IMG/VR virus record: IMGVR_UViG_3300037840_000505
DNA length: 64,000 nucleotides
Origin: an uncultured virus (IMG/VR IMGVR_UViG_3300037840_000505)
Lineage: Duplodnaviria > Heunggongvirae > Uroviricota > Caudoviricetes
Reading direction: 5' to 3' (one strand)
Below are positions 12,449-64,000 of this stretch, one piece after another; the stretch's first letter is position 1; each line of letters begins with the position of its first letter. The notes under the pieces are model-generated. The model was not told the DNA's origin. It did no database searches and saw only the letters and a list, made by a program, of their open reading frames with translations. A program made the position numbers and the translations under genes.

Positions 12449-13333
12449 ATGATGCGGATTATCCGAGTGTTCCCACGCAAGACCCGCGCGACACCCGACG
12501 ATCCCCTCAGTTATTTTGGACCGCCCGACCTCTTTGCCGAGGCGGACGAAATCCACGTCTCGGTCACCTTTAGCTACGATAAGGTGCGGGCCGAGCAGCT
12601 GGCCGACCAATGGCGCTTTGTTGCTCCGGTGAAGATCGGCGGCGTCGCCTATGGCGATACGAGCCTTGAATTTATCCCCGGTCGTTACATCAAACCCGGT
12701 TACACGATCACTTCGCGCGGCTGCCCGCGCCGCTGCTACTTCTGCGACGTCTGGCGCAAATGGCCCACGACCAACGCGCTGCCGATCCACGATGGCTGGA
12801 ACATCCTCGACGACAACCTTCTCGCCGCGCCGCGTTCCCACGTCGAGGCCGTGTTCGATATGCTGCGACGACAGAAGAAGCGAGATTGGCCGGGCTGGGA
12901 CGGTCGCCTCGAATTCACCGGCGGCTTGGAGGCGCTTGCCCTCGAAGACTACCAAGTAGGATTGCTCGCCAATCTTCGGCCGCGCCCGAATATGTTCTTC
13001 GCCTATGATCCAGGCGACACCTTTGACACGCTGGAAAGCGCCGCGCGACGACTGCTGGCGGCAGGGTTCACGGCGCGCTCGCACCGCCTGCGGTGTTACG
13101 TCCTGATCGGCGGAGCAAAGGACACGTTGGAAAAAGCCGAGATGCGGTTGCGCGCGATGATCGGCCTTGGGTTCACACCCTTTGCAATGCTCTGGAAGCC
13201 GTCGAAACCGGCCGAGGAGCGTCTTCGCCCGGGGCCGGAATGGCACCGGTTCCAGCGCGAATGGGCGCGGCCCGCGATCATCCATGGCGAGATATCCAAA
13301 ATTCATCCTGGGCTGTTCGAAGACGACGCCTAA
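12449..13333 (+). CDS. Radical SAM protein (class B-like N-terminus), antisense to the virion operon
   Basis: SD AGGAGG; TSRGCPRRCYFC (CxxxCxxC), ILDDNLLA, FTGGLEA, VKIGG. Confidence 0.85.
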   Translation: MMRIIRVFPRKTRATPDDPLSYFGPPDLFAEADEIHVSVTFSYDKVRAEQLADQWRFVAPVKIGGVAYGDTSLEFIPGRYIKPGYTITSRGCPRRCYFCDVWRKWPTTNALPIHDGWNILDDNLLAAPRSHVEAVFDMLRRQKKRDWPGWDGRLEFTGGLEALALEDYQVGLLANLRPRPNMFFAYDPGDTFDTLESAARRLLAAGFTARSHRLRCYVLIGGAKDTLEKAEMRLRAMIGLGFTPFAMLWKPSKPAEERLRPGPEWHRFQREWARPAIIHGEISKIHPGLFEDDA

Positions 13334-14241
13334 TACGCCGCCCCCGCATCACAGATTCCACCAATACCACCCCACCCGTATCCGAAGACACCGGGCCCAT
13401 CGCCCCAGCCCCAGCCGCCATAACCAGTGCCTAGACGGCGCGCGGTAATCCATTCCGCTTCCCTGGCGACCGAGGGCCAGCCTTCGTCCCCGTCCCGCAC
13501 CCTAGCCTGGCCGATCGCCTTGGCGGCGATCTGGATATTTTCCGCCCGGATGGCTCGACCCTCTTTCTTGTCCGGGTGGAGGGTCCACATCCTCACCGCG
13601 AGGAGGGCGACGAAGGCTTCCTCGAATAGCGAATCCCACAGGCTCGGATAGGGCACGAACCGGGTATAGACGAGTTCGGCGCAGGAGACGTTGGTCAAGA
13701 TGACCGTGCGCTCGTTGATCGCCTGGCCGCGGAAGTTCCACCATTGGGGGGGCGGACCATCGGGCGACGCGTTCAAGGGATAGTTGGTGTCGTTCGCCAC
13801 CAGCATCCGCGCCGGCATGATGACCGGCGGCGTCTGGAACGGCAGGGCGCCCGTGGTCGGGGGCTGCGGCGGGACGTTGGTGTTGCCCGGAACCCCGGCG
13901 CCTTGCGGGGTTGAATTGTTCCACGGCACGAACCGCGCGGCGAGGCAGTCGATCGGCCAGGCGTATTCGTAGGTCCAGGGCGGAATGACCTGGGTCCCGA
14001 CCCCTTCCTGCTGCTGCTCTTCGGACAGCCAGCCGCACGCCGCGCCGAGGAGCTGCATCGGCGCCTGGGCCCGGGCGAAGTTCCAGTAAGCAGCGCGCAG
14101 CAATTGCTCGAGCGAGGGGATGTAGTGCCGCAGCGCCACCTGGGCCGCTGTCGTGCTCGGACTGCTGAGCGAGCCGATCTGCTGGTCGGAGCAGCCGGCA
14201 TCGTCCAAGGCGCGGTTGACCAAATCCTCGGGGAGTGACAT
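13330..14241 (-). CDS. Tail tubular protein A / head-tail adaptor paralog 1
   Basis: VNRAL...LLRAAYWNFA...YEYAWPIDCL...WDSLFEEAFVALLA. Confidence 0.8.
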   Translation of the reverse strand: MSLPEDLVNRALDDAGCSDQQIGSLSSPSTTAAQVALRHYIPSLEQLLRAAYWNFARAQAPMQLLGAACGWLSEEQQQEGVGTQVIPPWTYEYAWPIDCLAARFVPWNNSTPQGAGVPGNTNVPPQPPTTGALPFQTPPVIMPARMLVANDTNYPLNASPDGPPPQWWNFRGQAINERTVILTNVSCAELVYTRFVPYPSLWDSLFEEAFVALLAVRMWTLHPDKKEGRAIRAENIQIAAKAIGQARVRDGDEGWPSVAREAEWITARRLGTGYGGWGWGDGPGVFGYGWGGIGGICDAGAAY

Positions 14242-14283
14242 TTAGGGCGCTGGATCCTTATCGTCGATTAGGGAGGATTTGAG

Positions 14284-14466
14284 ATGAATCGAGACGATCG
14301 CGCTCGGTTGGCGTTTCTCGCGGGCCATACCTTGGCCTTTGCAATAGTCGCGATCTTTGCCGCGCTAAACGGGCCAGTCCACTATTTAGGGCCGGCCGTC
14401 TTAGCCTTGATCGGGTGCGGTAGTATCGGTTTCGCGGTTTGGGAAAGCCGTCGCTGGACACGTTAA
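14284..14466 (+). CDS. Small two-TM membrane protein (antisense moron)
   Basis: SD GGAGG; two hydrophobic stretches; lower GC. Confidence 0.6.
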   Translation: MNRDDRARLAFLAGHTLAFAIVAIFAALNGPVHYLGPAVLALIGCGSIGFAVWESRRWTR

Positions 14467-14482
14467 ATTACAATAACACCCG

Positions 14483-15142
14483 CTACCCCTGCCGGCTGAC
14501 CGCGACTGCGCGCTCCTCCTGCGCCAGGGCGATATCGACCTTCTGCGCTTCGATCTGCGCCTGGTCGGCGCCGCTGAGGGAGGGCGCGACCCGTCGGCCG
14601 AGCTCGTCGGTCAGGAGCTCGACAAACCCGACATCCCATTGCGTCATGTCGGTCACCTGCCGCAGGTACGTCGCGACCGCCGAAGGGACATAGCACAGGA
14701 TGACCCGCGCTGGCGCATTCTCCTGATCGGGGAGCGGCGTGGCGTCATTGGCGATTTCGTAGGGGTGCGCCGTGGGGAGGAAATTGGGCACGAAATTGAC
14801 CGGCGGGTTGACCGAGCGGATCAGCAGCGCATCTTCCGGGTATTCGTATTCGAAGAGGTAGGGAGGGGGCGGGTTGGTGGCGGGGTTCCACGGCTTGAGC
14901 CCCGGTGCCGAGCCGTAGCCTCCGGACGGCGCCGCTTTGAGGAGCGTCAGATTTGCGTCTCCCCGGGGAAACCCCCAATCACTCTGCCGCAGGATGGCAT
15001 CGCGGGTCTGCGCGTAAAGCGCGAGGAAAGCCTTGGAAGGCTGCGAGCCTTCGAACATAAAGCCGATGCGTTTCCCGCGCCAGCCGAGCTTGACCAGCGC
15101 GATGTTGCAGAGGTCCATGGCGCTGTTGACCGAGGCTACCAT
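14483..15142 (-). CDS. Tail tubular protein A / adaptor paralog 2
   Basis: CNIALVKLG...RDAILRQSDWGF...FEYEYPEDALLIR...WDVGFVELL. Confidence 0.8.
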   Translation of the reverse strand: MVASVNSAMDLCNIALVKLGWRGKRIGFMFEGSQPSKAFLALYAQTRDAILRQSDWGFPRGDANLTLLKAAPSGGYGSAPGLKPWNPATNPPPPYLFEYEYPEDALLIRSVNPPVNFVPNFLPTAHPYEIANDATPLPDQENAPARVILCYVPSAVATYLRQVTDMTQWDVGFVELLTDELGRRVAPSLSGADQAQIEAQKVDIALAQEERAVAVSRQG

Positions 15143-15726
15143 CAGCCGTCCCGCATGATCGCCGCCTGCGTCGTCCGCGCCCCCTGGTCGCCGTATTCAC
15201 GCAGGAGGTCGGGCTTCCCGACCCCCGCCATCGCGAGTTTCGCAGCGATGCCCTGGATGACCGCTTCCTGGAACAAGGCATCCCACAGGGCCTCGGGCGG
15301 CGCGTTGGAGATGCTCGCCATGGCATCGGCGAGAAAGGTCCAGATGACCTTGGTCGGGATCCCGGAGATCGTCCGGTTGCCGACATTGAAATTGGTCGGG
15401 AGCGGGTTGTGCGGATCACCGCCCGAGGGAGGATAGAGATCGCGCACCTCGATCCCCATCGGCGGGTAGAGGTATTCCCGGGTGAAGGGATAGGGCGCGG
15501 ATCCCCCCGATGGGGTGAGGCTCATCAGGTTGAGCGAAAAATCGAACCCGAATTCCCGCCCGACCGCGTAGAAGACTTCCTGGTAGACCGCCCCCGCCGC
15601 GATCCCCAGGGTCGTGTTATCGAAGAGCGGCGGGGTCCCGGTGAGCGGACCCTGATTATTGAACCCGCCGATAAGTTGGATCGCGGCGTTCGCGACCGCG
15701 GCCGGTGTCGTGAAGGCAGCCGCCAT
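15142..15726 (-). CDS. Tail tubular protein A / adaptor paralog 3
   Basis: ANAAIQLIG...GREFGFDF...REYLYP...WDALFQEAVIQGIA. Confidence 0.75.
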   Translation of the reverse strand: MAAAFTTPAAVANAAIQLIGGFNNQGPLTGTPPLFDNTTLGIAAGAVYQEVFYAVGREFGFDFSLNLMSLTPSGGSAPYPFTREYLYPPMGIEVRDLYPPSGGDPHNPLPTNFNVGNRTISGIPTKVIWTFLADAMASISNAPPEALWDALFQEAVIQGIAAKLAMAGVGKPDLLREYGDQGARTTQAAIMRDG

Positions 15727-34108: not shown

Positions 34109-34360
34109 CTAGGCGCGCCCGTCGGCCTCGCGGAAGCCGGGCAGGTCCCGGGGATCGTCGTCGACCGCAAGGCGCAGCACGTTGATGACGCCGTGATTGG
34201 GCCGGCTGGCGAATTCGAGATGCCCGATCCGGTACTGTTTCATTCCGTACAGCGTGGGGCAATAGACAACGTCGTGCCTGGTCAGATCCCGAAGCTCGAT
34301 CACATCGCAGTTGCCCGCGAGGCGAGGCTTGCCGTCGGTGCAGTCGATATAGACCAGCAT
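34109..34360 (-). CDS. Hypothetical protein
   Basis: TGATG coupling to the portal stop. Confidence 0.5.
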   Translation of the reverse strand: MLVYIDCTDGKPRLAGNCDVIELRDLTRHDVVYCPTLYGMKQYRIGHLEFASRPNHGVINVLRLAVDDDPRDLPGFREADGRA

Positions 34361-36204
34361 CAGGCCTGGTTCCCCAGAAGAGCCGAGAGCGCGGTGTTGC
34401 CGCCGAGCCCCGTCTTGGAAAGGGTATTCGCCCCCTGGACCGCGGCCTGGCCGACTTGGGCTTGGGCCGCGAGCTGCGCCGCGGCTTGGGCCTGTTGTTT
34501 CAAGAGCCGGACCTGCGAGGCCGAGCGGATGATCCGCGAGGATGCTCCGCGCAGCTTGGCGACTTCGCGCACCGACTCGTCGGCGTCGAGGACGTATTTC
34601 GAATCGGGGAATTCGGCGGCGATCGACTGGGCAAAGGCATAGGTGCGCTCGATCGAGGAGACGCTTCCCGCTCGTCGCGCCCGGGTGAGTTCGGATTCGA
34701 AGCTGACCTGGAGCGGGATGCCGTAGAGGCTCGGCGGGAGCTTCGGCCACATGCCCCTGCGGTGCAGGATCGCCAATTGGCGCTTGATCCGGGGCTGCAG
34801 GCCGTAGCGGTAGACCCGGTAGATGACGCCGCCCAACTGCCGCAGCAATTCTTCGCGCACCGCATCGATCTCCGTCGCCGATACGTCGCGCTTGGTGTTG
34901 TGGGCAATCTCCTCGATCGCCCGGAAGAGGTCGGCGTGCGACCCGCGGTGGATGCGCTCGCGCACCTTTTCCATGTTCTCGCGCAGCGCGGCGAGCGCCT
35001 GTGGGTCGACGACGTAATTGGGCTTGAATTCCGGGGCGCCGGTCGCCGAATCGTAATACGTGATGTGGTCGGGTTTGGTTGAATGCGGATCGTTCTTGAG
35101 GCTGACCGGAGCGCTGTAGGAAGGCCGCGCCAATTTCTCGGCGAGCTCGGCTTCCCGGGCGACCATGATCTGCAACTGGATCGTATCGCCGAGGATCGTT
35201 TCACCCAGACCATGCCCATAAGGGTCGTTGGAGACGCGGTGCCAGGGCGCGGCGGCAAAGGGCTTCTCGCGGAAGCCCGCGACGGACAGCGGCGCTTCGT
35301 TCGACTTGCCGACGATCCAATAGATTTCGCGCCAGGTAAAGCCGCCGGGGAGCCTGCCGCATTCGCTACCCGGCTCCCTTCCTTCGATCGCGAAATTGGG
35401 CTCGATCGTGTGACCGACGACATATTCGTATTCGAGCGCGCCGCCCTTTTGCCGCCATTTCTGCTTGACTTCCTCGGGGCAATTGGCGAGGCCGAACTGC
35501 TCGACGATCTGCGAGACGGTGCGGCGTTCCTCGACTTCCAGCACCTGGTCGGCGTAATCGGCCCCGGCGGCGAGGCAGAATTCGCCGGCACACGGGTTCT
35601 TGGAGATGAAGATGTTTTCCTTGTCTTCGTAATCGACCGTGACGCCGGTCCCGAACGCCGTGATGTCCTCGTAGAAGAGATCGAGGCTCTCATAGAAATT
35701 GGTCTGGTCCTGGACGAACCGGAGGGTCTCGGTCAGATCCTCGAAAAACATCATCCCGGCGCGGTCGAGCTCCATCCCCGGGATGCCGGGGCCCAATTGC
35801 AGCCATTCGCTGTCGGGGTCGGTGCAGGTCACCATGAGGCCGTTGGTGCAGGCCTCCAGATCGAGGGTCGCGGTGTTGTCGAGAATGTTGCCGTCTTTGC
35901 GCAGGCCCTTGTTGTAATTGTTCTCGACGATAAAGGCGTGGTATCTGCGAGGGAGCTCGAACCGGGCGATATCGCCCCAGGTCCGCCACCACGGAAGCCG
36001 CCAGGTCTTGTCTCCCGCCAAGCGCTGCTCGAGGTGGAGATACATCTGCGGCCAGCCGAGCCAGTCCGGCGCCTTGGTTTCGGGAACCTCGTTGAGGTTT
36101 GCCGGCTCCTGGGCGAGGAGCGCGGGGCTCGCGTTGAAGTAATAGGGCTGGGCCGGGTTGAAGCCCCTCTCGCCATAGCGTTTCTGGGCGGCGGCTTCAG
36201 CCAA
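34360..36204 (-). CDS. Portal / head-tail connector (Bbp21, T7 gp8-like family)
   Basis: 614 aa. W.DIARFELP, ILDNTA, TNFYE, AFGTG, PW...YGHG, SATEI...E...LG motifs. Confidence 0.92.
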   Translation of the reverse strand: MAEAAAQKRYGERGFNPAQPYYFNASPALLAQEPANLNEVPETKAPDWLGWPQMYLHLEQRLAGDKTWRLPWWRTWGDIARFELPRRYHAFIVENNYNKGLRKDGNILDNTATLDLEACTNGLMVTCTDPDSEWLQLGPGIPGMELDRAGMMFFEDLTETLRFVQDQTNFYESLDLFYEDITAFGTGVTVDYEDKENIFISKNPCAGEFCLAAGADYADQVLEVEERRTVSQIVEQFGLANCPEEVKQKWRQKGGALEYEYVVGHTIEPNFAIEGREPGSECGRLPGGFTWREIYWIVGKSNEAPLSVAGFREKPFAAAPWHRVSNDPYGHGLGETILGDTIQLQIMVAREAELAEKLARPSYSAPVSLKNDPHSTKPDHITYYDSATGAPEFKPNYVVDPQALAALRENMEKVRERIHRGSHADLFRAIEEIAHNTKRDVSATEIDAVREELLRQLGGVIYRVYRYGLQPRIKRQLAILHRRGMWPKLPPSLYGIPLQVSFESELTRARRAGSVSSIERTYAFAQSIAAEFPDSKYVLDADESVREVAKLRGASSRIIRSASQVRLLKQQAQAAAQLAAQAQVGQAAVQGANTLSKTGLGGNTALSALLGNQA

Positions 36205-36433
36205 GGAGCGCTATTCCTGCGGCCATGCCGACTATCCAACTGGCCGCGGCCAGGTATTTAGCGGCCCTCTCGTTCTCGGCGAGGATTAAATTGTAGGCGA
36301 GGAAAGCGAAGCCGGCGCTGATGAGCGCCAAGCGCCACGCTGAGCCGTTCTGGGTCACCAGCCCGGCGATAAAGCATCCAGCCAGATAGAGCGCGGAATT
36401 GAGCGCGCCCACGTAGAAAACGGGCGTATTCAT
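36197..36433 (-). CDS. Small three-TM membrane protein
   Basis: Three hydrophobic stretches; start uncertain. Confidence 0.5.
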   Translation of the reverse strand: MNTPVFYVGALNSALYLAGCFIAGLVTQNGSAWRLALISAGFAFLAYNLILAENERAAKYLAAASWIVGMAAGIALLG

Positions 36434-36470
36434 CGGATCAATTCCGACCGCGAAGATGACGCCATAGCCG

Positions 36471-36671
36471 TCATTGTCCCAGAAGCGCCTTGGGTGCGGT
36501 CGGGGCATTGGGTGCGCCCTGGGGCGAGGTGGCGATGGTCTGGTTGGCGCTGGCCGCCGCCTGTTGCGTCTGGGCTTGTCCCGCGCCCTGGATGCCGGGA
36601 TCGGCGTAGGTCGGCGGCGGAGGCGGAGGCGGCGGCGCCGGCGGCGCCTTGGGCGGGTTGAAGATGCTCAA
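36471..36671 (-). CDS. Pro-rich small virion protein upstream of the portal
   Basis: TTGA overlap; poly-Pro tract, TIATSPQG, C-terminal KALLG. Confidence 0.7.
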   Translation of the reverse strand: MSIFNPPKAPPAPPPPPPPPTYADPGIQGAGQAQTQQAAASANQTIATSPQGAPNAPTAPKALLGQ

Positions 36672-36780
36672 CGCCACGGACTCACGAACCAGGCGATCTC
36701 GCGTTGGAAGCCGCGCAGGAACCACCAGCCGATACCGATGACGGTCAGGGCGCCGAGGGCGAAGCCAAGGAGGAGACCCG

Positions 36781-37563
36781 TCACGTCCGCATCCCGTAAT
36801 GGTCGGCATCGAGGGCCGCTCTTGGGGTCCATTGTTCTTCGCGCGGCTTTCGTTCCGGCCAGAGGCTTTGGCGCACCACGTCGCTGTCCAAGGGACGGAA
36901 GGCAGCGATCGGCAGCCCGGACATCACGAGGTAGCGCAGGCAATCCATCAGATGGTCGTTGGATTTGACGACCTTCCCCTTGTCGTCGCGGCGGTAGATG
37001 CGGAATTCGCCCATCAGGTTGACGAGGGTCGAAAATATCTTGAGCCGGCCCGACGACATCCGCGACCAGACCTCGTAGATCCCGGCCTCGACCGCGTTGT
37101 CGGCCGGGGTGATCCGCAGACCGAGGCCCTGGTACATCGTGGACAGCCGCGTCCCATCGATCTGGCTCCGGCCGCGAGCCGCCGGATCGTGCACTCCGGG
37201 TATCCAGGCGCCGCGCGCGCGGATCGCCTGGGCATGAACGGCGGGCTCGACCTCGCCCCGGTAATGCTCGGAATAAAGGTAGAGGACATCGGCTTCGGGA
37301 TCGAGCGCGCCCCAGAGCGCGGCTGTCCTGTTCCACCCGACGTCCAGGGCGTAGGCATGCTTCCAGTATTTCGGCAGCTCGAACGGCGCGCAGAGGAGAT
37401 CCTCTTCCGGCACCGGGTAGATCGCCCCCGACCCCAGCCGCGGCAGCCCGCGCATACGGGCGTCCCGTTCATGCGGCGGATAGGCTTCGGCGAGAGACTT
37501 CTTGGCTTCGGGCGAGAGATGAGGAACATCGTCCCAGCCCGCCATGACGACGTATTTGGTCAC
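36781..37563 (-). CDS. Terminase large subunit, C-terminal nuclease part (P22 gp2-like)
   Basis: WDDVPHL...YPPHERDAR..G.P.LGSGAIYP, ALDVGW, DHLMDCLRY. Confidence 0.9.
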   Translation of the reverse strand: MTKYVVMAGWDDVPHLSPEAKKSLAEAYPPHERDARMRGLPRLGSGAIYPVPEEDLLCAPFELPKYWKHAYALDVGWNRTAALWGALDPEADVLYLYSEHYRGEVEPAVHAQAIRARGAWIPGVHDPAARGRSQIDGTRLSTMYQGLGLRITPADNAVEAGIYEVWSRMSSGRLKIFSTLVNLMGEFRIYRRDDKGKVVKSNDHLMDCLRYLVMSGLPIAAFRPLDSDVVRQSLWPERKPREEQWTPRAALDADHYGMRT

Positions 37564-37564
37564 T

Positions 37565-39040
37565 CTACCAGCCCCACGCCGTCTTGCGCAGTTCCTCGGT
37601 CTCGGGGTAGGCCCCGCCGGGGAGGAAGTTGAGGACGGTCGCCGATATCCCCTGGAGCGGGGTGAAAAGGCCCATGATGAGCCCCGAGGGTTCGGCGGGG
37701 TTGGTCGACATCGTGCGGGTCAGGGTCTCGGTGTAGATGTCGAAGGGCGGCTCTTCGTCGAGCAGCGCGCCGTCGATCTTCGCCGATTGGAAGCTCTTGC
37801 GCTTCTGTTCATAGGCCTTGTAGACCAGATGCGAGCTGTAGCCGCTGTCGCGGTAGCGGATTTCCGCGAAATCAAGCGCATCGGGGATGCCGCCGCGGGT
37901 CGGCGAACGGCCGATCTTGTCGAAGGGGATGAGGCCGGTGCCGGGCTTCTCGGGCGGTCCCATCAGGGTCAACTGCATCCCTTCGCGCACCGCCTTGGCG
38001 TCTTCCCCCGCCGCCCACCAGGTTGTCGGACGCTCGAACCTGCGGCCTTCCCACCAAAGGGGATACCAGCCGGTCAAATGAAGCGCCGCCTCGTAGCATC
38101 CGGCATAGGTCTTGCCGACGCGGTTGCCGGCGATAAAGGCGCGCTCGTGGTGCTTGGCGCCGGCCTTGAAGAATTCGAGATGCTTCGGATAGAGCTCGCG
38201 CCGCAGCGGGCCTTCCTCGGGGAAGGCATCGTAGAGCGCGCGGCGTTCGGCAAGATATTCATCGAGGCTCTTGCCCTCGGCGGCCGCGGCCCTGGCGGCG
38301 TTGGCGTCGATCGTGCTGCCGCCGTATTCCGCATCGACATTGACCCGAACCCATTCGTCGCCCTTACCCCGGCTGGCCTGGCGCTGGTAGAAATTCTTCG
38401 GGAGGTAATGGCCGCCCTCGGCGAGGTGGGTGCGCCCTCCCGGTTGGCGGTAGCGCTCGATGTCCTGGCGCTTGGCGAGGAAATGGTCTTCCGCCGGCAT
38501 GCGCGAGGTGAGAATGACCCCGGACCACAGCGCATCTTCATGCAGCGAATCGGGGTAGGTTCCGGCGGCATCGATCGCGTCGGCGAGGATGTCCTCGGGA
38601 TAATGTTTCGCCCAATCGAGCCAGATCCCCGTGGTCGGCAGTTGCAGGAGCTTCTTGCGGTGCTCGGGGCGGTCGAGGCTCAGAAAGTGGATTTCGAGTT
38701 CGACCGCGACGATCCGGCCCTCGCGCTGGCCGATGCCGTAGCGCACCCAATGGGTCAGGGCTTTTTCGTCCCAGCTGCCGATATCCGTGGGGACGCGCGC
38801 CTTCCAGGCATCGATCGTCTTGCTCAATTTCGCCATGTCGGGAGCGCAGGCGAGCCAGCGCCAGCGCGGCTGAAAGAGACCCTGGCGGGCGAGCTGCTGG
38901 GGCTTCAGGATGATGTCGGCGACCGCGGTCCAGCGCCGGCCGCCCTTCATCGGACCCATCAGCGCCCGCGCGAACCCCTGGCTCTCGGCAAAGGCCGACG
39001 AGACGGGTCCGGGAGAGGTCCAGTTGAGGCTGATCGGCAT
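37565..39040 (-). CDS. Terminase large subunit, ATPase part, with an extra degenerate N-terminal terminase ATPase domain
   Basis: C-half: AGNRVGKT, HLTGWYP.WW.G, LLDEEPP, FTPLQG. N-half: GPMKGGRR, FLSLDRPE..KKLL, TGIWLDW, RQPGG...AE...LP..FY, V.AEYG. Confidence 0.88.
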   Translation of the reverse strand: MPISLNWTSPGPVSSAFAESQGFARALMGPMKGGRRWTAVADIILKPQQLARQGLFQPRWRWLACAPDMAKLSKTIDAWKARVPTDIGSWDEKALTHWVRYGIGQREGRIVAVELEIHFLSLDRPEHRKKLLQLPTTGIWLDWAKHYPEDILADAIDAAGTYPDSLHEDALWSGVILTSRMPAEDHFLAKRQDIERYRQPGGRTHLAEGGHYLPKNFYQRQASRGKGDEWVRVNVDAEYGGSTIDANAARAAAAEGKSLDEYLAERRALYDAFPEEGPLRRELYPKHLEFFKAGAKHHERAFIAGNRVGKTYAGCYEAALHLTGWYPLWWEGRRFERPTTWWAAGEDAKAVREGMQLTLMGPPEKPGTGLIPFDKIGRSPTRGGIPDALDFAEIRYRDSGYSSHLVYKAYEQKRKSFQSAKIDGALLDEEPPFDIYTETLTRTMSTNPAEPSGLIMGLFTPLQGISATVLNFLPGGAYPETEELRKTAWGW

Positions 39041-39043
39041 TTG

Positions 39044-39083
39044 ACAACAGGAAAGCCCCGCGCGGAGGACATCCGGCGGGGCT
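39044..39083 (-). terminator. GC-rich hairpin with short U-tract just upstream of the terminase start
   Basis: AGCCCCGC CGGA TGTCC TCCG C GCGGGGCT followed by TTCCTGTT; stem ends 13 nt before ATG 39040. Confidence 0.45.
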
Positions 39084-39146
39084 GGGGTGTCGATGAGATG
39101 ATCTGTCGTGGTGTCGTTACACGATGCGTCTCGCTTTCTTGAGCCA

Positions 39147-39380
39147 TCAGTGTCCGGCGGGAGGGATAGGCGAGCTTTCTGACAAAGTCAAGAGCTTCCT
39201 TTCGCGCGCGAGCCACAAGGGCATGGTCACCAGATCATTATCGCCGATCTGTATCAATTTGAGGGGGAGCCAGGTACGCCGGTCGCCCTGGATGAACTGT
39301 ACCGCCGTTCCCTTCAATGACCATTCCTTGACCCGGCCGTAGACCTGAACCGGCTCGCGGTCGCTGTCGGATCGGCGCAA
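39147..39380 (-). CDS. Small conserved phage protein (paralog of 54421..54672)
   Basis: TTG start after GGGGGAG; WLP...TMPLWLARERKL. Confidence 0.65.
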   Translation of the reverse strand: MRRSDSDREPVQVYGRVKEWSLKGTAVQFIQGDRRTWLPLKLIQIGDNDLVTMPLWLARERKLLTLSESSPIPPAGH

Positions 39381-39521
39381 GCGGTATTCTCCCCCATGAT
39401 CGGACCGGCAATTACCGGCAAGCTGGCACGCGGCACGTTTGCAGCGAGTTTCTTTCTCGCGTGTTTGGCGGTATTGGAAATGGAGGGGGTGCGGCTCGAA
39501 GACCTCTGACGGAGGAGCATC

Positions 39522-40334
39522 TTGAAACGCCCCGAAGACCCCCAGTACATACAAAAACGCCGCCAGCGTGAGCGCGAAAAGAGGGACCGCCAAAAGCACG
39601 AGGCTAATCTTGCTACGATCAACTCCATCGCTAATGAACTTGCAGCCACAAAAAAACAATCCCAATCCGACGATGATAAGCGAGCATTTCGCGAAAAGCT
39701 GACCATAGCTTTGCTCATTGCTACCGTTGTCGCCGCTGGACTCGGCGATGTGTTTTTCTATGGCCAATTGAGAGAGGCCAAAAAATTGTATGGCCCTATA
39801 GCACAGCAAGCTTCTGCCGCCTCGCAGAGCAGTAATGCTCTGATTAACTCGGAAAGAGGAAAGGTGTTTATCAACACTATCAAGCTGAAGAAGTCTACCG
39901 ATGCCGATCCCCATCCCCAGATCGATTATAGTTTCATCAACTTGGGAAGAAGTCCAATTCTGACAACAACCGTATATGCCCAATGCCAACTTATTGGGAA
40001 TGCTGTTCCGCTCACGCCAATTTACGACAAAAGCAAAGGGAGGGTGGGGCAAAATGCCGTCGGCAGTAACGCGTCCTTCGGATCGACCGGCGCATCCCCC
40101 GACTTTCCCGCGTGTATTATTAACCCTGAGATGACGGCCCAGGATTGGGAAGAGGTTACTGGGAATACCAAATTTTTCTTCCTTTCTGGATATGTTTATT
40201 ATCAAGATGCCTTTTATAAATATCGGTGGTATTTCGGAGACATTTATCGCGGCGAAATACAACTCTTCAGCACATACGGATTGCCATCGGCCTACAATGA
40301 CGAAACCCAAGAGGAATACGCCAAGGCCCGCTAG
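39522..40334 (+). CDS. Low-GC single-TM moron protein
   Basis: AT-richer sequence; charged N-terminus, TM LTIALLIATVVAAGLG, then a soluble domain; SD GGAGG. Confidence 0.75.
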   Translation: MKRPEDPQYIQKRRQREREKRDRQKHEANLATINSIANELAATKKQSQSDDDKRAFREKLTIALLIATVVAAGLGDVFFYGQLREAKKLYGPIAQQASAASQSSNALINSERGKVFINTIKLKKSTDADPHPQIDYSFINLGRSPILTTTVYAQCQLIGNAVPLTPIYDKSKGRVGQNAVGSNASFGSTGASPDFPACIINPEMTAQDWEEVTGNTKFFFLSGYVYYQDAFYKYRWYFGDIYRGEIQLFSTYGLPSAYNDETQEEYAKAR

Positions 40335-40388
40335 AACTCCTGCCTTATGAAACGACGGTCTTATGCGGGCCATCGCCCGCTCCGCGAT

Positions 40389-40562
40389 CTACTTTACCTC
40401 CGCTCTATGTGGTAACTTTTGCAATAAGACCAATGGCTTGGCGTTGATCCTTTGCGCCATAATACCGACAAACTGCGGCGATCCAATCTTTTGCCGGTTG
40501 TAATGACGGTCAGCCAGCACGCGAGCCAGCGGATCAGCCCTATGTGAATGGCACCAGTGCAT
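40389..40562 (-). pseudogene. Truncated 5' fragment of a conserved phage gene
   Basis: W..SHRADP..R.LADRHYNRQKIGSPQFV, then an abrupt change into low-GC sequence at ~40468. Confidence 0.55.
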
Positions 40563-40873
40563 TAACGTGTGTCTGCGGTTATCAGACGCGGCCCCGAAAG
40601 GAAAAATCCCCATTCCTTAGAAGCCTCATCGCCCTCGGCGATCACGGGAATGAGTATGCCAAGCTTGTCCGGCTCAGAATCTCGGCTTGGCCCGCGACTT
40701 GATGCTCCCATTGATAGGCCGCGCCCGAGATTGAGCCGTTTTTCGCAGACCTTGCAGAACACCCACACATGGAGCGAACCGACATTGCTGTCCACCATGC
40801 TCGTCATGTGAAAATTGATATCGAGGTCGCTATGCGGACATTGCGCTGAGTCCGTTCGGATGTTGGTTGGCAT
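40562..40873 (-). CDS. Hypothetical Zn-binding protein
   Basis: CPH...CKVC. Confidence 0.6.
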   Translation of the reverse strand: MPTNIRTDSAQCPHSDLDINFHMTSMVDSNVGSLHVWVFCKVCEKRLNLGRGLSMGASSRGPSRDSEPDKLGILIPVIAEGDEASKEWGFFLSGPRLITADTR

Positions 40874-41487
40874 CAGTCGTGTTCCCCGAACTTGTTGGGC
40901 TGGAAGGGCGGCTCTTCCTTGGGTTCCGGTTTGGCGGGAAGGCCGATATTGCCGGTCAGCTCATCCTCGATCCGGCCGCGCAGGGAGGTCGGCGATCTGC
41001 GCGCCTTGAGTATTTCGAGTTCGCGGGTGAGCGCTTCATCGGGCGGCAGGTCCGCAATGCGGATGCCGGCCTTCCAGCCAGCAGCCACCAAACCACTTTT
41101 TTCGTACCGAACCGGTCGCGAGGCAAACGAGACGGCCGGTTCGTCTTTGTAGGGCTCCGGCGCGCAAGGTGGCAATCCGATTACCCAGCGTAGGCGGTCG
41201 ATCGCTTCGATGATGCGGGAGGCCGTGACTTCCGGCACATCGTCGAAATCGAGCCGGCCAGTCTCAAGATCATCGCCCGTCTCGTAACCCGCAGCGGCTT
41301 TGGATGGGCACCACCAGACACAGGGGAATTCTATTTTTCCCCACTGGAGGACAAAAGCATCCGAAATATCTCCGCCCCATTTGGAGCTCGGTTCCGGCCA
41401 CCATTTCGAGGTCGGCTCCGGCCATCCGCGCTCGCGCAGACCGGCGATGACCTGATCGCGCAGGATTTCGGGTTTTGGGTCGCTCAT
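40873..41487 (-). CDS. Hypothetical protein
   Basis: 204 aa; WPEPTSKW WPEPSSKW tandem duplication. Confidence 0.6.
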   Translation of the reverse strand: MSDPKPEILRDQVIAGLRERGWPEPTSKWWPEPSSKWGGDISDAFVLQWGKIEFPCVWWCPSKAAAGYETGDDLETGRLDFDDVPEVTASRIIEAIDRLRWVIGLPPCAPEPYKDEPAVSFASRPVRYEKSGLVAAGWKAGIRIADLPPDEALTRELEILKARRSPTSLRGRIEDELTGNIGLPAKPEPKEEPPFQPNKFGEHD

Positions 41488-41726
41488 CTCAACGGCTCTC
41501 CAGGATAGATCGAAAATTGGCCGCGCACGGTTCGTTCACCCCAGCTGATAAGCCGGAGAGAGGCATTGGCATTCGTGGCCTCGATGACGAATTCGGGCCC
41601 TAACCCGAGCCAGGGTGCCGGAGTGTCCAACAGCGCTTTTACCGGCATAAGGCTGCCGGCCCGCACGATGGCCGGGGCGGCAAGGAGACCGGCGATAAAG
41701 CCTCTACGGCCTAGAACGAGCGCCAT
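41484..41726 (-). CDS. Small protein with twin-arginine-like N-terminus
   Basis: GRRGFIAGLLAAPAIVRAGSLMPVK. Confidence 0.7.
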   Translation of the reverse strand: MALVLGRRGFIAGLLAAPAIVRAGSLMPVKALLDTPAPWLGLGPEFVIEATNANASLRLISWGERTVRGQFSIYPGEPLR

Positions 41727-41986
41727 CAGATCGGCCGGTATCCAGGAAAGAGTTCCTCGATCCGGTCATAGGCGATCATCGTCGCGACTTCGGGTCCGAG
41801 GGCTTCCTGCAAGGCGAGAAGGGAGGTTGCGGCGAGGTTGACCGGAGCGTGATTGATCGCTTCACGCACCGCTGGATCGAGCTGATCGAACGCCGCCATG
41901 TCCTCGGCGAGGTCGATCGCGACCATCTTCGCGTGCTGATCGGTCGGCAGGTCGCCGCCGATGTTGGTGCCCTCGCTCAGCGCCAC
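41726..41986 (-). CDS. Hypothetical protein (DUF6525-like)
   Basis: MAAFDQLDPAVREAINHA. Confidence 0.6.
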   Translation of the reverse strand: MALSEGTNIGGDLPTDQHAKMVAIDLAEDMAAFDQLDPAVREAINHAPVNLAATSLLALQEALGPEVATMIAYDRIEELFPGYRPI

Positions 41987-42612
41987 GGTTCCTCCGGCGG
42001 CAGATTGAGGTTTATATCCCAGCGGGCGAGCCTGCCGTCAAGCCGTGATTGCAGGGTCTGGAGGGCCTTCGACCAGTCCGACCAGCGCTTCTTCGAGGCT
42101 TCGGTGAGGCTGCGCTCGACGGTTTCCTTGAGCCAGCAGACCTGGGCTTTTTTGAAGCGGTTGTTGGTCCAGCCGATGATTACCTTTCCGGTCCTGGGAT
42201 TGAGCGTCGGCCCCCATCTGCGGTAGGTGTCGAGGAAGTCGGGGCGGGTTTTCGAGCGGGCATGGTGGCGGATTTTCTCGGCGATCCTGGCAGGGAGGAG
42301 CGCCACCATCCGGGCGACGGTGTCGGCATCCTCGTCACTCACCGCCTGGATGTGGAGCGGCGCCACGCTCTTCAATTTCATCCCGGCGCAGGCTTCGGCC
42401 AATATCCAACTGCCGCGGGGGCGCCTTTTGGGCCGGGCGGTCAAGCCCTGATCCATCGAGAGCATCGGATCGACCTTCCAGGTCTGGCCACCTTCCCTCC
42501 CGGGGGAGAATGCCCAATGAAGGAGAGCCTCGATGGAGATCGATATCTTCCGCGCCGATTGGATCTCGAGCCAGGCTTCGGTCTCCGGGTCGCGGAGCAT
42601 GGGTTGGGCCAT
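41977..42612 (-). CDS. Conserved phage protein, candidate late-gene regulator by position
   Basis: ISIEALLHWAF...DADTV...HARSKTRPD; upstream of the packaging genes. Confidence 0.65.
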   Translation of the reverse strand: MAQPMLRDPETEAWLEIQSARKISISIEALLHWAFSPGREGGQTWKVDPMLSMDQGLTARPKRRPRGSWILAEACAGMKLKSVAPLHIQAVSDEDADTVARMVALLPARIAEKIRHHARSKTRPDFLDTYRRWGPTLNPRTGKVIIGWTNNRFKKAQVCWLKETVERSLTEASKKRWSDWSKALQTLQSRLDGRLARWDINLNLPPEEPWR

Positions 42613-42833
42613 CAGGCTTGTACCTTTGATTGCGGGCGCAGGACAATAATCGTGCTCCGCTCGCCCGTGTCACGCCGCGTCCAGCCCTCCGGGGAGGCAT
42701 AGAACTGGCCCCGGTAGATGTTGAGCGATCGGTCGCCGTCACTCAATTTGCCGAGGATGCCTTTCTCGGTCTCGGTTTGCGGGGTCAAGACGATCTGTTC
42801 CAGGCCGTCTTCGATGTAGAGGGCGATCTTCAT
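42612..42833 (-). CDS. Hypothetical protein
   Basis: MKIALYIEDGLEQIVLTP; coupled at both ends. Confidence 0.65.
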   Translation of the reverse strand: MKIALYIEDGLEQIVLTPQTETEKGILGKLSDGDRSLNIYRGQFYASPEGWTRRDTGERSTIIVLRPQSKVQA

Positions 42834-43120
42834 TCTGCGGCCTCCTCGTGCGCGTGCACGTGCGAGGCTTCGGGCGGCAGCATGCCGAGGGCGCGCTCAT
42901 AGACCTCGACCAGGGTCTCCTGTTCGTCGCGGCTGTCCTTGTCCATCGCCCGGTGGCGCAAGACGATGCGCATGATCTTTGGGTCGAACCCGGTCCTCTT
43001 GGCTTCCTTGAAGACCTCGGAGATGTCGGCACCGAGGGCCCTGCGCTCTTCGTGCAGGGGCTCGATCCGTTCGATAAAGGATTTGAGCCGGTCTCCGGCT
43101 ATGCCGCTGATGGTTGTCAT
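42830..43120 (-). CDS. gapR: GapR-like (DUF2312) DNA-binding protein
   Basis: LKSFIERIEPLHEERRALGADISEVFKEAKRTGFDPKIMR...YERALGM. Confidence 0.92.
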   Translation of the reverse strand: MTTISGIAGDRLKSFIERIEPLHEERRALGADISEVFKEAKRTGFDPKIMRIVLRHRAMDKDSRDEQETLVEVYERALGMLPPEASHVHAHEEAAE

Positions 43121-44157
43121 GTGGGTATCTCCGAATATTCAATCCCATCGAGGAGACGGCCGGCGGCTTTCTTGCCGACGCGGATATAGTCGCCATGGCT
43201 GTAGGCGATGATCGCGCGACCGTTGACGCTTGTCACTTCGCCATCAGGCTCGTCGACGGCCTGATATTCACCCCATTGCTTTAGGAAAAAGGCGACGCCA
43301 GCGGCTTGACATTGGTCGCGCAACGATCGAGCCCATTCCGGGTGCATCGGCCGCGCGTTGGGACCGCTCTCCCCGCCGACGATCACCCAATCGAGCTTGC
43401 CGCCAATCTTCGTGGGCGCGCCGAAATCACCCGTCTCTCCATCCGGGAAGCGCATGCGCATGGCCTCTTCGCCGCGCAATGGATAAAGGCGCCCACGCGG
43501 ACCGCGATCTAGATAATCAAGCCTCAGAGAACCGATCAGCGGTTCTGCCGAGATAAACCTCTTGGCGGCTGGGGTATCCAAGAGGAACGGGATGCGCTCG
43601 TCGGCGCGGAAATGGTCCTCGACCGATACGCCGAGCCAGACGTTTGGCAGCGGCCATTTCAGACGAGCGGGATTGTATTGCCAGTTCCCGTCGATGTGAT
43701 GGTCGAAGCACGCCGGTACCTCATGAGCGAGTTTGAAAGCCGCTGCTGTCGCTCGATCGGCCCCGGCTGTGAGGTAATCCCGCATCCGCTCGGCCCGTTT
43801 GGTCAGCACCTGGAAGGTGTGCTGGGGGCTGAGCGCCATGACGGCGAAGACCTTGTCGATCCACGCGTCGGGCACGGCTTCGTGGAAGATGTCGCCGTGC
43901 GCGCAAACGAAAATCCGCCGGGGACGTTTCCATCTGAGCGGCTGGTCGAGCCAGTCGGTGTTGAAGCGTACTTCGCCCGTCCATACCGGGCCGGCCTTGG
44001 TGTCCTGGGTGAGGCTCTGGCGCGACCAGTGATGCTTCATCCGCGTGCCGGCGAGCTTCATCGCGTAGCAGTTGGCGCAGCCCGGCGAGACGACGCTGCA
44101 TCCCGTGATCGGGTTCCAGGTGGCGTCAGTCCACTCGATCGGCGTGTTGTCAGCCAT
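43117..44157 (-). CDS. Phage Gp37/Gp68 (DUF5131) radical-SAM-like protein
   Basis: IEWTDATWNPITGCSVVSPGCANCYA, QVLTKR, NVWLGVSVE, WVIVGGESG, FFLKQWG. Confidence 0.92.
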   Translation of the reverse strand: MADNTPIEWTDATWNPITGCSVVSPGCANCYAMKLAGTRMKHHWSRQSLTQDTKAGPVWTGEVRFNTDWLDQPLRWKRPRRIFVCAHGDIFHEAVPDAWIDKVFAVMALSPQHTFQVLTKRAERMRDYLTAGADRATAAAFKLAHEVPACFDHHIDGNWQYNPARLKWPLPNVWLGVSVEDHFRADERIPFLLDTPAAKRFISAEPLIGSLRLDYLDRGPRGRLYPLRGEEAMRMRFPDGETGDFGAPTKIGGKLDWVIVGGESGPNARPMHPEWARSLRDQCQAAGVAFFLKQWGEYQAVDEPDGEVTSVNGRAIIAYSHGDYIRVGKKAAGRLLDGIEYSEIPT

Positions 44158-44422
44158 TCATCCCTCCGGCGCCGGGAATTATCCGCGGCGTCTTGCCGCT
44201 TAGCCACAAAGCGTCCGGTACTTCACCCGGCATGGCTTTGCCCCAGATGACGGCGCTCCTCGTATGGCCTCTTTGGATGTGCCAATCCTTGCCGTCGAAG
44301 GCAAAAACTTCGGTGCGGCCTGAGCTCCCGAAGACACGGACAAAACCACCGGCGGTCAGTGGCTCGGCTTCCGCTTGCGCTCTGGTCAACAAGGCATCGC
44401 GACGACGCTTGGCCTCACCCAT
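44150..44422 (-). CDS. Hypothetical protein
   Basis: MGEAKRR; SD GGAGG. Confidence 0.6.
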   Translation of the reverse strand: MGEAKRRRDALLTRAQAEAEPLTAGGFVRVFGSSGRTEVFAFDGKDWHIQRGHTRSAVIWGKAMPGEVPDALWLSGKTPRIIPGAGGMNG

Positions 44423-44679
44423 TTACGACCCTCCGAAACTCATTTTCCACAATGGCCGAAAATTTTGGAGCGATGGGGGGATGACGAGCGAAGCGCCAAT
44501 CCCCCCCCCACCCCGGCCTGCCGGCTGGCGGCCGGCGTATCCTGTTCTGCTGGCATCAAAACGTGCGCCTCATACTAGGGTAATACAGGACGGTGCAACA
44601 AAATCAATGGCTTGCGTTGACCGCTCCGCTCTTCGGGCTAACGCTGGGTTAACGCCGCTTGTGTTTGGGCGGGTCAATG
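44423..44679. promoter_or_regulatory. Non-coding region with IHF-consensus site, CtrA-like box and G/C homopolymer tracts (candidate packaging site)
   Basis: AATCAATGGCTTG (WATCAANNNNTTR) at 44602-44614; CTAA-N7-TTAAC at 44638-44653; C9 tract at 44501-44509; AAAATTTT. Confidence 0.5.
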
Positions 44680-45168
44680 TCATGACGGCATCCGCTCGAA
44701 TGTGCCTTCGAACACCGGCAATTCGCCGTCGGTCGGCGCCAATTCCTCGGATTCGGGCGCGCCTGGCGCGAAGTGCAGGCTGCGCGGCTGTTCCTGGTGG
44801 ATGTAGGGCATGACCGCGCGCCAGTTGGCGAGGTAGAGCTCGACCGCTTTCGCCGGCTCGCAACCCCAGATCCGCGCGAGCTCGGCCACCTCATCCTGAT
44901 CGAGGATGTTCTTGCCGGCGATCGCCAGCGCGCGCAGCAACGGATCCGCGAAACCAGGGTCAACCGTGTGCATCTGGCGCATGTAGAACCGCGCCATTTC
45001 GCCGGTGCGCTTGTTGCGCGAGCCTTTGGGACGCCCGGCGCCGTCGCGGTGGCCGCCGCGGCTGGCCAGATCGGGCGTGCCGAAGAGATCGGGCGCGTGC
45101 ATCGCCCGGCTGGTGTCGCCGATCGATGGCTGGACCGCTCGCGCGAGTGCTTTTCGAGGGGTGCGCAT
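44680..45168 (-). CDS. Putative terminase small subunit
   Basis: GGHRDGAGRPKGSRNKRT...VMPYIH motifs. Confidence 0.6.
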   Translation of the reverse strand: MRTPRKALARAVQPSIGDTSRAMHAPDLFGTPDLASRGGHRDGAGRPKGSRNKRTGEMARFYMRQMHTVDPGFADPLLRALAIAGKNILDQDEVAELARIWGCEPAKAVELYLANWRAVMPYIHQEQPRSLHFAPGAPESEELAPTDGELPVFEGTFERMPS

Positions 45169-62981: not shown

Positions 62982-64000
62982 CTACCGTGGCGCGAGCGCT
63001 CGATCAACCGCCTGCATCTGCTCGCGGCCGGCATGGGCGATCTGAATTTCGCTGTAGTAGATCGTGTCGATGAGCTGGCGCTTTTCGTCGGGGGCGATCC
63101 CCGGATCCTTCCAGATATCGCGGATCAGGTGCGAGTGCTCGGCCAAGGCCGAATGGATACCGTCCAACTGGACAAAGAGCCGCGGGCCGCCCGCGGCCTG
63201 GATGCGGTCGAGCGCTTCGAGGTCGCCTTCCTGGGCTTTGGCCTTCCAGGTATCGAAGAAGCGCTTGTTGCGTTCATAATCGTCATAGAAGCGCTGGATC
63301 GATTCGGCGCTTCCCGAGGGATAGCGCACGGCAAAGGCCTTGATGACCGGGATATCCGCGAGGGTGTCGGCAGGCCTGGGAGGATCCGGAACGAGGCCCG
63401 CCTTGCGCAGACCCGCATCGGCGATATTGAGCGCGTAGACCCCGAGATTGCCGGTCCACGCCCGCAGGTAGTTCTCGAGGAGAATGGGCGTCGTCAAGGC
63501 GCGCGCGACGCCGCCGGCCATCGGCGAATCCATGTCGAGGCTTTCCTGCCGCACCCGGGGAAAAGCCGCGATCAGTTGGCCCAGCTTCTTCGCCGTCTCG
63601 CTGGTATAGGGCGCGTACTGGTATTCCGGCAATTGGCCTTCGAGCTCGGCCGGGACCAGGGTCCTGTTGGTGAAGGCCGAGCGGTTGGCGAACTGGTCGA
63701 TCACCGGCGAGATGGCGGAGGGGTAGAAATTGGGGACCACAGTATCGGCGATCGACTTGCCGAATTCCCGGAAGGCGTCGGGGTTCGAATTATTGTAGGC
63801 TTCCAAGGCTCGCTCGGTCCCGGACCCGAAGATGACGCCCATGCCCCAGGGTTTCGGCACGCGGAAAATATGGCCGCCGTCTCCGCCGTCCTCCTTCGCC
63901 TTCCCAGTCATGATGATCCAGAAGAGGTCTTTCTCCCATTGCGGGATTTCCTTGTACCGCGGATCGTCATGGTTGGCGGCCCAGAGCAGCGCCGAGGGCA
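62982..64000 (-). CDS. LPD38-domain C-terminal part of a large polyvalent protein (enters from right edge)
   Basis: Frame is open to the edge: DDPRYKEIPQWEKDLFWII...RVPKPWGMG...NRSAFTNRTLVP...QYAPYTSETAK. Confidence 0.88.
   Translation of the reverse strand, partial: PSALLWAANHDDPRYKEIPQWEKDLFWIIMTGKAKEDGGDGGHIFRVPKPWGMGVIFGSGTERALEAYNNSNPDAFREFGKSIADTVVPNFYPSAISPVIDQFANRSAFTNRTLVPAELEGQLPEYQYAPYTSETAKKLGQLIAAFPRVRQESLDMDSPMAGGVARALTTPILLENYLRAWTGNLGVYALNIADAGLRKAGLVPDPPRPADTLADIPVIKAFAVRYPSGSAESIQRFYDDYERNKRFFDTWKAKAQEGDLEALDRIQAAGGPRLFVQLDGIHSALAEHSHLIRDIWKDPGIAPDEKRQLIDTIYYSEIQIAHAGREQMQAVDRALAPR

Follow-up and report, generated by a model that had tools for sequence, protein, structure and literature searches.

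The terminase gene of an uncultured soil phage encodes two large terminase (TerL) ATPase domains in a single chain: an N-terminal domain that is predicted to be catalytically dead and, behind it, a piece of an active-type P22-like ATPase from a different TerL lineage. The N-terminal domain belongs to a real, conserved family of pseudo-enzymes in phage packaging modules. We regard it as an even call that this dead domain is a non-catalytic adaptor of packaging initiation, linking an old small terminase (TerS)/pac recognition step, or DNA itself, to a new motor. The DNA stretch analysed here (64,000 nucleotides, hereafter the window) covers the greater part of a podovirus-like phage whose circular genome measures about 65 kb. 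A very large gene apparently runs across the window ends (62982–64000 and 1–3903, minus strand), with phrog_9854 at both ends and LPD38 at its C-terminal end, which makes a circular contig probable. We infer an alphaproteobacterial host because the phage carries a GapR-domain gene and a relative, P0169, is annotated in a Stellaceae genome bin. The tail protein phrog_394 is present as three tandem paralogues (13330–15726, minus strand).

The packaging region is encoded on the minus strand. Its first ORF (39040–37565, 491 aa) comprises the dead domain (38321–39040, aa 1–240), an Ala-rich linker or helix placed by sequence and alignment at approximately aa 241–262 (38255–38320), and the N-terminal piece of the active-type P22-like ATPase, which ends in AWGW and a stop codon (37565–38254; Pfam PF03237 at aa 302–467). 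It is followed by a 260-aa ORF containing the end of that ATPase and an RNase H-like nuclease (36781–37563; PF17289 and PF03237), a small conserved gene in the nuclease-portal interval (36471–36809; phrog_831), a portal or head-tail connector gene of the BPP-1/BcepC6B type (34360–36204; PF12236, phrog_332) and, both identified through Pfam and PHROGs, a scaffold/protease-like gene (33044–32190) and the gene of the major capsid protein GP7 (32168–31125). Also on the minus strand, a 211-aa gene common to the window and the complete phage G005 (41977–42612) fills the slot that is held in other dead-domain phages by DUF6456, presumably a late regulator. A TerS-like gene of 162 aa with the motif GRPKGSRNKRT (44680–45168) follows a putative replication gene, 5.6 kb upstream of the terminase ORF. 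A 532-aa ORF on the plus strand (37544–39142) was rejected as a gene and interpreted as the antisense shadow cast by the terminase gene, because its first-position G+C (0.82) mirrors that of the third position of the minus-strand gene. Just before the terminase, on the opposite strand, lies a gene of low G+C content (54%) encoding a hydrophobic helix (39522–40334, plus strand); the same slot in G005 is occupied by an unrelated gene (L108 7933–9459, minus strand) whose 509-aa product has a membrane-like sequence, and neither gene has family matches. The search of sequencing runs returned no RNA run among the holders listed.

The initial annotation had proposed that the first 240 residues follow the motif order of another TerL lineage with substitutions at the catalytic sites, and each of the three degenerate motifs was confirmed. 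Walker A reads GPMKGGRR (aa 29–36, 38956–38933), with G34-R35-R36 in place of GK[ST]; Walker B reads WLDW (aa 140–143, 38623–38612), with W143 at the catalytic Glu position; and the coupling motif reads TSRMP (aa 178–182, 38509–38495), where R180 replaces the coupling Asn. In addition, A158 replaces the trans-acting Arg, so that the P-loop Lys/Thr, the catalytic Glu, the coupling Asn and the trans-Arg are all lost. The window copy carries Trp at both the position following the Walker A Thr and the catalytic Glu position, and therefore even nucleotide binding is doubtful in this copy. The retained structural motifs, FLSLDRPE (aa 119–126), RQPGG (aa 198–202), AE-GGHY-LP-KN-FY (aa 207–218) and AEYG (aa 237–240), are all present as annotated, except that AE and LP are separated by four residues rather than two. 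In tblastn searches the domain matched the TerL genes of 22 phage records with 22–32% identity (best E 2e-19), including BcepC6B, Mx8, KL4 and Rhizobium RHph_TM3_14A. Its pairwise alignment with the BcepC6B TerL (29% identity over 260 columns, E 3e-18) sets GSGKT, WLNE and DTNAP opposite GGRRW, WLDW and TSRMP, respectively. The domain has no match in Pfam, PHROGs or NCBIfam, and none by PDB sequence search. As judged from these alignments, it belongs to the BcepC6B/Mx8-type TerL lineage and is predicted to be catalytically dead.

The AlphaFold2 model of the domain, built from a 78-row alignment that included active relatives, reached a pLDDT of 95.9. Its best structural matches were the terminases of D6E (Z 19.2; rmsd 2.9 over 202 aligned residues), P74-26 (Z 18.6), Sf6 (Z 17.6) and HK97 (Z 17.0), all above the next unrelated structure (Z 13.3), and Foldseek matched it to P74-26 with an E-value of 1e-9. 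The model predicts a complete TerL ATPase fold (ASCE P-loop) with its lid. With Z scores of 17–19 to TerL ATPases, the concern that this half might have no terminase fold falls away. A model of the full 491-aa protein, for which the alignment had 2 rows, was unusable (pLDDT 38.6). Misassembly does not account for the fusion. Over 4,473 bases, the window matches an IMG/VR record exactly; contigs from two sequencing runs, from which the window itself may derive, span 36000–43864 and 36000–44821 without gaps or differing letters; and, independently of these runs, the same fusion occurs in P0004 (70%), P0009 (52%) and the complete phage G005. The codon-position G+C is similar across both halves of the ORF and the portal gene.

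The in-frame ATPase behind the dead domain has the intact motifs expected of a P22-like enzyme (GNRVGKT, aa 305–311; LLDEE, aa 426–430; FTP, aa 459–461), but it is not a whole TerL: the first ORF stops at aa 491, and the nuclease is encoded by the next ORF (37563–36781) rather than in the same chain. Since positions 2–144 of PF03237 lie in the first ORF and positions 169–212 in the second, the cut falls inside the ATPase. The 260-aa ORF has a GTG start one base past the upstream TAG (37563–37567, minus strand) and matches PDB 4dkw (E 3.7e-25), which we take to be the P22 large terminase. A tblastn search with the active part retrieved 406 phage records, most of the 15 listed being annotated as TerL. 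The ATPase piece ends in the same way in P0004, P0009 and G005, the last of which has a 71-aa ORF inside the gap between ATPase and nuclease. Among 80 related loci (L003–L082, the window included) the P22-like TerL is encoded by two genes in 60; their junctions differ in frame, often overlap as ATGA or TAATG, and may contain inserts of up to 6.7 kb. The split and unsplit states interchange about 11 times on a 70-sequence tree. A programmed frameshift was rejected as the rule for the family, given that frames 0, +1 and +2 all occur and that gaps reach that length; at the window's own junction one could still operate. The split did not give rise to the dead domain, as the majority of the motors behind it are enzymes made as one chain. 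Four P22-like active parts follow a dead domain, and they form a clade (0.945); its sisters L004–L006 are unfused, share the portal type and are preceded by an ordinary gene. Of the 12 unfused P22-like relatives that were inspected, most carry a TerS-type ORF directly upstream. Translocation and cutting would be carried out by the P22-like parts. In G005, the active ATPase is interrupted at its Walker A by a LAGLIDADG intein (L108 9494–11932, plus strand), and none is found in the dead domain.

A search of cluster representatives gave 594 proteins at E 0.001, of which the 150 listed were used. Once loci had been added and duplicates and pieces shorter than 190 aa removed, 228 of 268 domains were aligned, comprising 198 active-type domains and 30 dead ones defined by their coupling motif; the coupling Asn column is thus not independent evidence of loss. 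At the P-loop Lys column, 194/198 active domains have K and 28/30 dead domains have R. The following column holds T or S in 194/198 active domains and K or R in 28/30 dead ones, with Lys in 22 of the 30. The catalytic Glu is present in 196/198 active domains versus 3/30 dead ones. An Arg located 15 residues after this Glu, found in 99% of the active domains, is lost in the dead domains, together with the neighbouring R161; the essential trans finger of D6E is described as E143/R158, with the same 15-residue spacing (PMC5727402), and by that analogy the lost residue would be the trans-acting Arg. The residues that replace the catalytic ones are themselves conserved (R in 28/30 at the Lys column; R180 in 90%), and Arg accounts for 11 of the 30 dead-specific conserved columns. 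The median net charge per 100 aa is +0.73 in dead domains versus -0.7 in active ones, a shift confounded by the higher G+C content of the dead set (Gly+Ala+Pro 28% versus 22–24%). The window copy is among the most degenerate. Four active-type loci (L188, L192, L208 and L209) form a subgroup with W-L-P-E rather than N-E at Walker B and W-N-A-G/A-D rather than N-x-P at the coupling motif.

A phylogeny of the domain, computed with FastTree and SH supports, gathered all dead domains (31/31, in a tree of 229 rows with P0023 added) into one clade with a support of 1.0 and a stem of 0.84; its sister group is weakly supported. Within this clade, the domains of the window and P0004 do not group with those of G005 and P0009, which may reflect recombination or poor resolution. 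The fusion partners are three active TerL lineages with no mutual BLASTP match at E 0.01: a P22-like type in the window, P0004, P0009 and the complete phage G005; a phrog_38 type with the motif PPGSAKS in P0012 and most viral loci; and a phrog_5902 type in P0008 and P0023. About 12 dead domains are standalone proteins of 254–310 aa with a C-terminal helix, some of which may be cut by contig ends; the standalone form of L148 has a true stop in the DNA, and its contig ends 80 bases past it. P0013, also standalone, has no relative in IMG/VR. DNA-pattern scans of IMG/VR yielded 10 dead domains, 15 active ones and 1 unrelated sequence among 26 loci, and a further scan gave dead domains at 15/15; a metagenome scan gave 7/7. 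The 24 loci of a GTDB scan included no dead domain (9 active relatives and 15 loci without a profile match). The family is rare, and many of its loci, coming from a few related samples, are not independent. One element, seen in L150 (1829–13163, minus strand) and also in L149, L111 and L097, carries an integrase, a dead domain-TerL fusion, primase/Toprim genes, a TerS-like gene and two more genes of recombinase families, and no portal match lies within 10 kb; it appears to be satellite-like or rearranged. In L230, about 850 bases of short G+C-rich repeats (1300–2150) produce long open frames on both strands.

The dead domain appears to be kept under purifying selection and not to be decaying. 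The dN/dS ratios, calculated by the Nei-Gojobori method for pairs that share sequences and are not independent, were below 1 in 19/19 pairs. Across the 15 closer pairs, the dead domain (0.02–0.33) was about as constrained as the active part of the same gene: 0.05–0.33 versus 0.03–0.31 in six of them, and 0.02–0.26 versus 0.09–0.27 in the other nine. The four most distant pairs gave 0.37–0.66 for the dead domain versus 0.26–0.37 for the active part. The window's only comparison, with G005, gave 0.57 and 0.26, respectively, at near-saturated dS. Together with the 31-domain clade, these values run against the possibility of a unique and decaying fusion, and the fold, the different lineage, the catalytic loss and the selection support the initial view of a terminase replacement in which the old ATPase was kept as a pseudo-enzyme.

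Homologues of the TerS-like gene were first seen upstream of the dead domains of L083 and L084, and a search with homologues gave 71 loci (67 viral and 4 from genomes). An intact BcepC6B-type TerL lies at most 1.5 kb downstream in 61 of them, a dead domain lies 2.6–9.5 kb downstream in 8, and a phrog_5902 TerL without dead domain is found in the remaining 2 (L194, a true counter-example, and L217, a weak match). Four TerS-like genes emerged from a profile search of 401 genomes, each of them preceding an intact TerL. Since 61 of the 71 members stand directly before an intact BcepC6B-type TerL, ORF 45168–44680 is, by its position, the putative TerS of the dead domain's lineage. The ORF has no Pfam match, matches weakly phrog_15261 (function unannotated), shows a weak likeness to Mx8 p42 (E 7e-5), and has no match among cultured phages. 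The gene occurs in 13 of the 16 dead-domain contigs or elements with enough flanking sequence, 14 further loci being too short to score: the window, G005, L100, L102, L103, L106, L107, L109, L162, L239, L231, L240 and the L111/L149/L150 element, in which the gene is downstream of the dead domain. L230, L232 and L233, whose records are 24–35% complete, have the primase-to-terminase slot with no detectable TerS-like gene. When the window was compared with the phrog_38 group (14 loci, 9 contigs), the terminase ORF was common to 14/14 and the TerS-like ORF to 12/14, and these were the only genes broadly shared; the remaining matches were the antisense shadow (4/14) and one match of 46 residues (1/14). 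Eight of nine dead-linked TerS-like proteins fall into one clade (SH 0.907), and a P-x-G-[AS] tail motif is found in 8/9 of them versus 0/36 scored active-linked proteins. Searches with 17 queries and two profiles returned no other TerS or TerL candidate in the window or in G005.

These observations are consistent with the following scheme. The ancestor would have packaged its DNA with a TerS of the 44680–45168 family and a BcepC6B-type TerL, as the neighbourhoods suggest. This TerL would have lost its nuclease and its catalytic residues once, in keeping with the single clade, and foreign motors (P22-like, phrog_38 and phrog_5902) would have been placed behind it at least three times, fused or not. 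Because it has been kept before several unrelated motors, the dead domain is probably a repurposed adaptor rather than debris. Occupying the first slot of the packaging operon, which is the TerS position in relatives, it would keep the old genome-recognition step running by binding the co-retained TerS-like protein at its C-terminal tail, by gripping DNA through the ATPase fold, or by both; in this way the new motor would be brought to the site where the phage itself starts packaging. In the window, the dead ATPase, the linker and the active ATPase piece would form one chain, completed by the separately encoded lid and nuclease. As described in PMC9611059, in P22 and lambda the C-terminal ends of TerS attach to the N-terminus of TerL, and the engagement of TerL by TerS is presented there as an open question, most complexes being transient and without high-resolution structures; PMC5389665 describes the ATPase domain as the main DNA-binding site of the P74-26 TerL.

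The co-retention of a cognate TerS-like gene strengthens the earlier suggestion of an adaptor to TerS, and the three contigs with no such gene in the slot weaken it: the dead domains of L230, L232 and L233 are equally constrained (dN/dS 0.02–0.24). L194 also argues against the adaptor, as it pairs the TerS-like gene directly with a phrog_5902 TerL and no dead domain (9839–11813, plus strand), though its TerS-like protein has a C-terminal tail unlike that of the other family members, perhaps because exchanging the tail offers a second way of becoming compatible. The dead clade, moreover, does not branch from within the 50 active TerLs that are known to lie behind the TerS-like gene, and because this gene follows replication genes its co-retention may be hitch-hiking. 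A complex prediction of the dead domain with residues 35–162 of the TerS-like protein scored 0.01, the fold of the partner being uncertain, and speaks neither for nor against binding. A broader proposal, which we hold somewhat short of an even chance, makes the domain a third terminase component: a TerL-derived pseudo-ATPase plug-in adaptor by which phages keep their own TerS/pac step while swapping the motor among several unrelated TerL lineages, and which in some phages would replace TerS altogether as the DNA-recognising module.

The constraint that persists where the TerS-like gene is missing would be explained if the dead domains instead oligomerised into a second ring beneath that of the active ATPases. 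This ring, structural or regulatory and independent of TerS, would assist assembly, hold DNA while it is translocated or sense nucleotide by way of a conserved basic pocket formed by R35, K36 and R180. Tandem AAA+ proteins offer an analogy, as they have a non-catalytic ring. The retention of the whole fold with its lid fits such a ring, as do the Arg-rich conserved columns, the higher net charge and the conservation of the altered active-site residues, which suggests a kept anion-binding pocket. We nevertheless consider it rather unlikely: the trans-Arg and R161 are lost, the two Trp of the window copy make nucleotide binding doubtful, the charge shift is confounded by G+C content, and both the co-retained TerS-like gene and the occupied TerS slot are left unexplained. 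This TerS link is equally unaccounted for by a decoy or shield against terminase sensors (Avs1-3, Upx), which would occupy a sensor without activating it or block access to the active ATPase. Avs2 is described as binding the TerL ATPase domain and contacting its bound ATP, and an anti-defence role has been raised for the standalone terminase-like ATPases Ksap1, Ksap2 and T4 vs.8; in the same source, however, isolated ATPase domains strongly activate EcAvs2 and terminase-like proteins are triggers (bioRxiv 10.64898/2026.04.30.721860). The standalone dead forms, among them that of L148 with its real stop, would suit a decoy, but a 1:1 fusion cannot out-titrate its target, and selection acts at motor-like levels, so that we judge this explanation improbable.

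Two further explanations appear very improbable to us. An adaptor by which the old ATPase docks the foreign motor onto the resident portal, also raised by the initial annotation, is disfavoured. The PF12236 portal of the window does belong to the family that accompanies the intact BcepC6B-type TerL in most TerS-like loci, but the dead domain occurs with two portal families, phrog_332 in the window and G005 and the Mx8-type phrog_12082 in the phrog_38 group, the latter being used by most dead-domain phages. Furthermore, L004–L006, the closest unfused P22-like relatives, have the window's portal type without the domain, and it is the nuclease end that faces the portal in HK97, phi29 and T7, as described in PMC7617512. 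Comparably remote is a functionless remnant of the terminase swap or a still-active, non-canonical NTPase. The dead domain's higher dN/dS in the four most distant pairs, the Walker B Glu kept in 3/30 domains and the Lys one column later in 22/30 point in this direction; the in-frame retention across 31 divergent sequences, the low dN/dS of the closer pairs, the family-specific conserved residues, the standalone genes and the replacement of all four catalytic positions in the window speak against it.

A domain selected only for non-catalytic work separates the TerS-TerL interface from hydrolysis and makes that interface testable. If the initiation adaptor is real, it would explain how phages exchange motors and still package their own DNA specifically, and viral motors would gain a family of pseudo-enzymes. 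As the domain is invisible to Pfam, PHROGs and NCBIfam, phylogeny and annotation that rely on TerL misread these genes.

In the full-text literature searched, which mostly excludes subscription papers, there is no description of a TerL ATPase that is catalytically dead and is joined to, or lies beside, a second TerL. The domain resembles the TerL of BcepC6B, Mx8 and Rhizobium RHph_TM3_14A (phrog_2) in its ATPase fold, motif order, FxxLDRPE, QPGG and AEN-L motifs and 22–32% identity, and differs from them in that its catalytic residues are replaced, its own nuclease is lost and it sits before a foreign TerL. The active ATPase motifs and the nuclease are those of P22 gp2 (Terminase_6N and Terminase_6C), to which the window adds a 240-aa N-terminal pseudo-ATPase and a two-gene cut inside the ATPase, with no adjacent TerS. 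TerL domains likewise occupy two CDS in phage phiPDS1, a split that its authors suspected to be an artefact (PMC10773633), whereas 60/80 loci are split here with varied frames and inserts. T4 vs.8, Ksap1 and Ksap2 also place an extra protein of TerL ATPase fold beside the phage's own terminase; vs.8 keeps its Walker A and B, unlike the dead domain, and none of the three is reported as fused to TerL or located in the packaging operon (bioRxiv 10.64898/2026.04.30.721860). Finally, like the TerS of P22, lambda, Sf6 and T4 as described in PMC9611059, the dead domain is encoded by the first gene of the packaging operon and would act in initiation; unlike them, it has an ASCE ATPase fold rather than an HTH with a helical hairpin, and a separate TerS-like gene is usually present.
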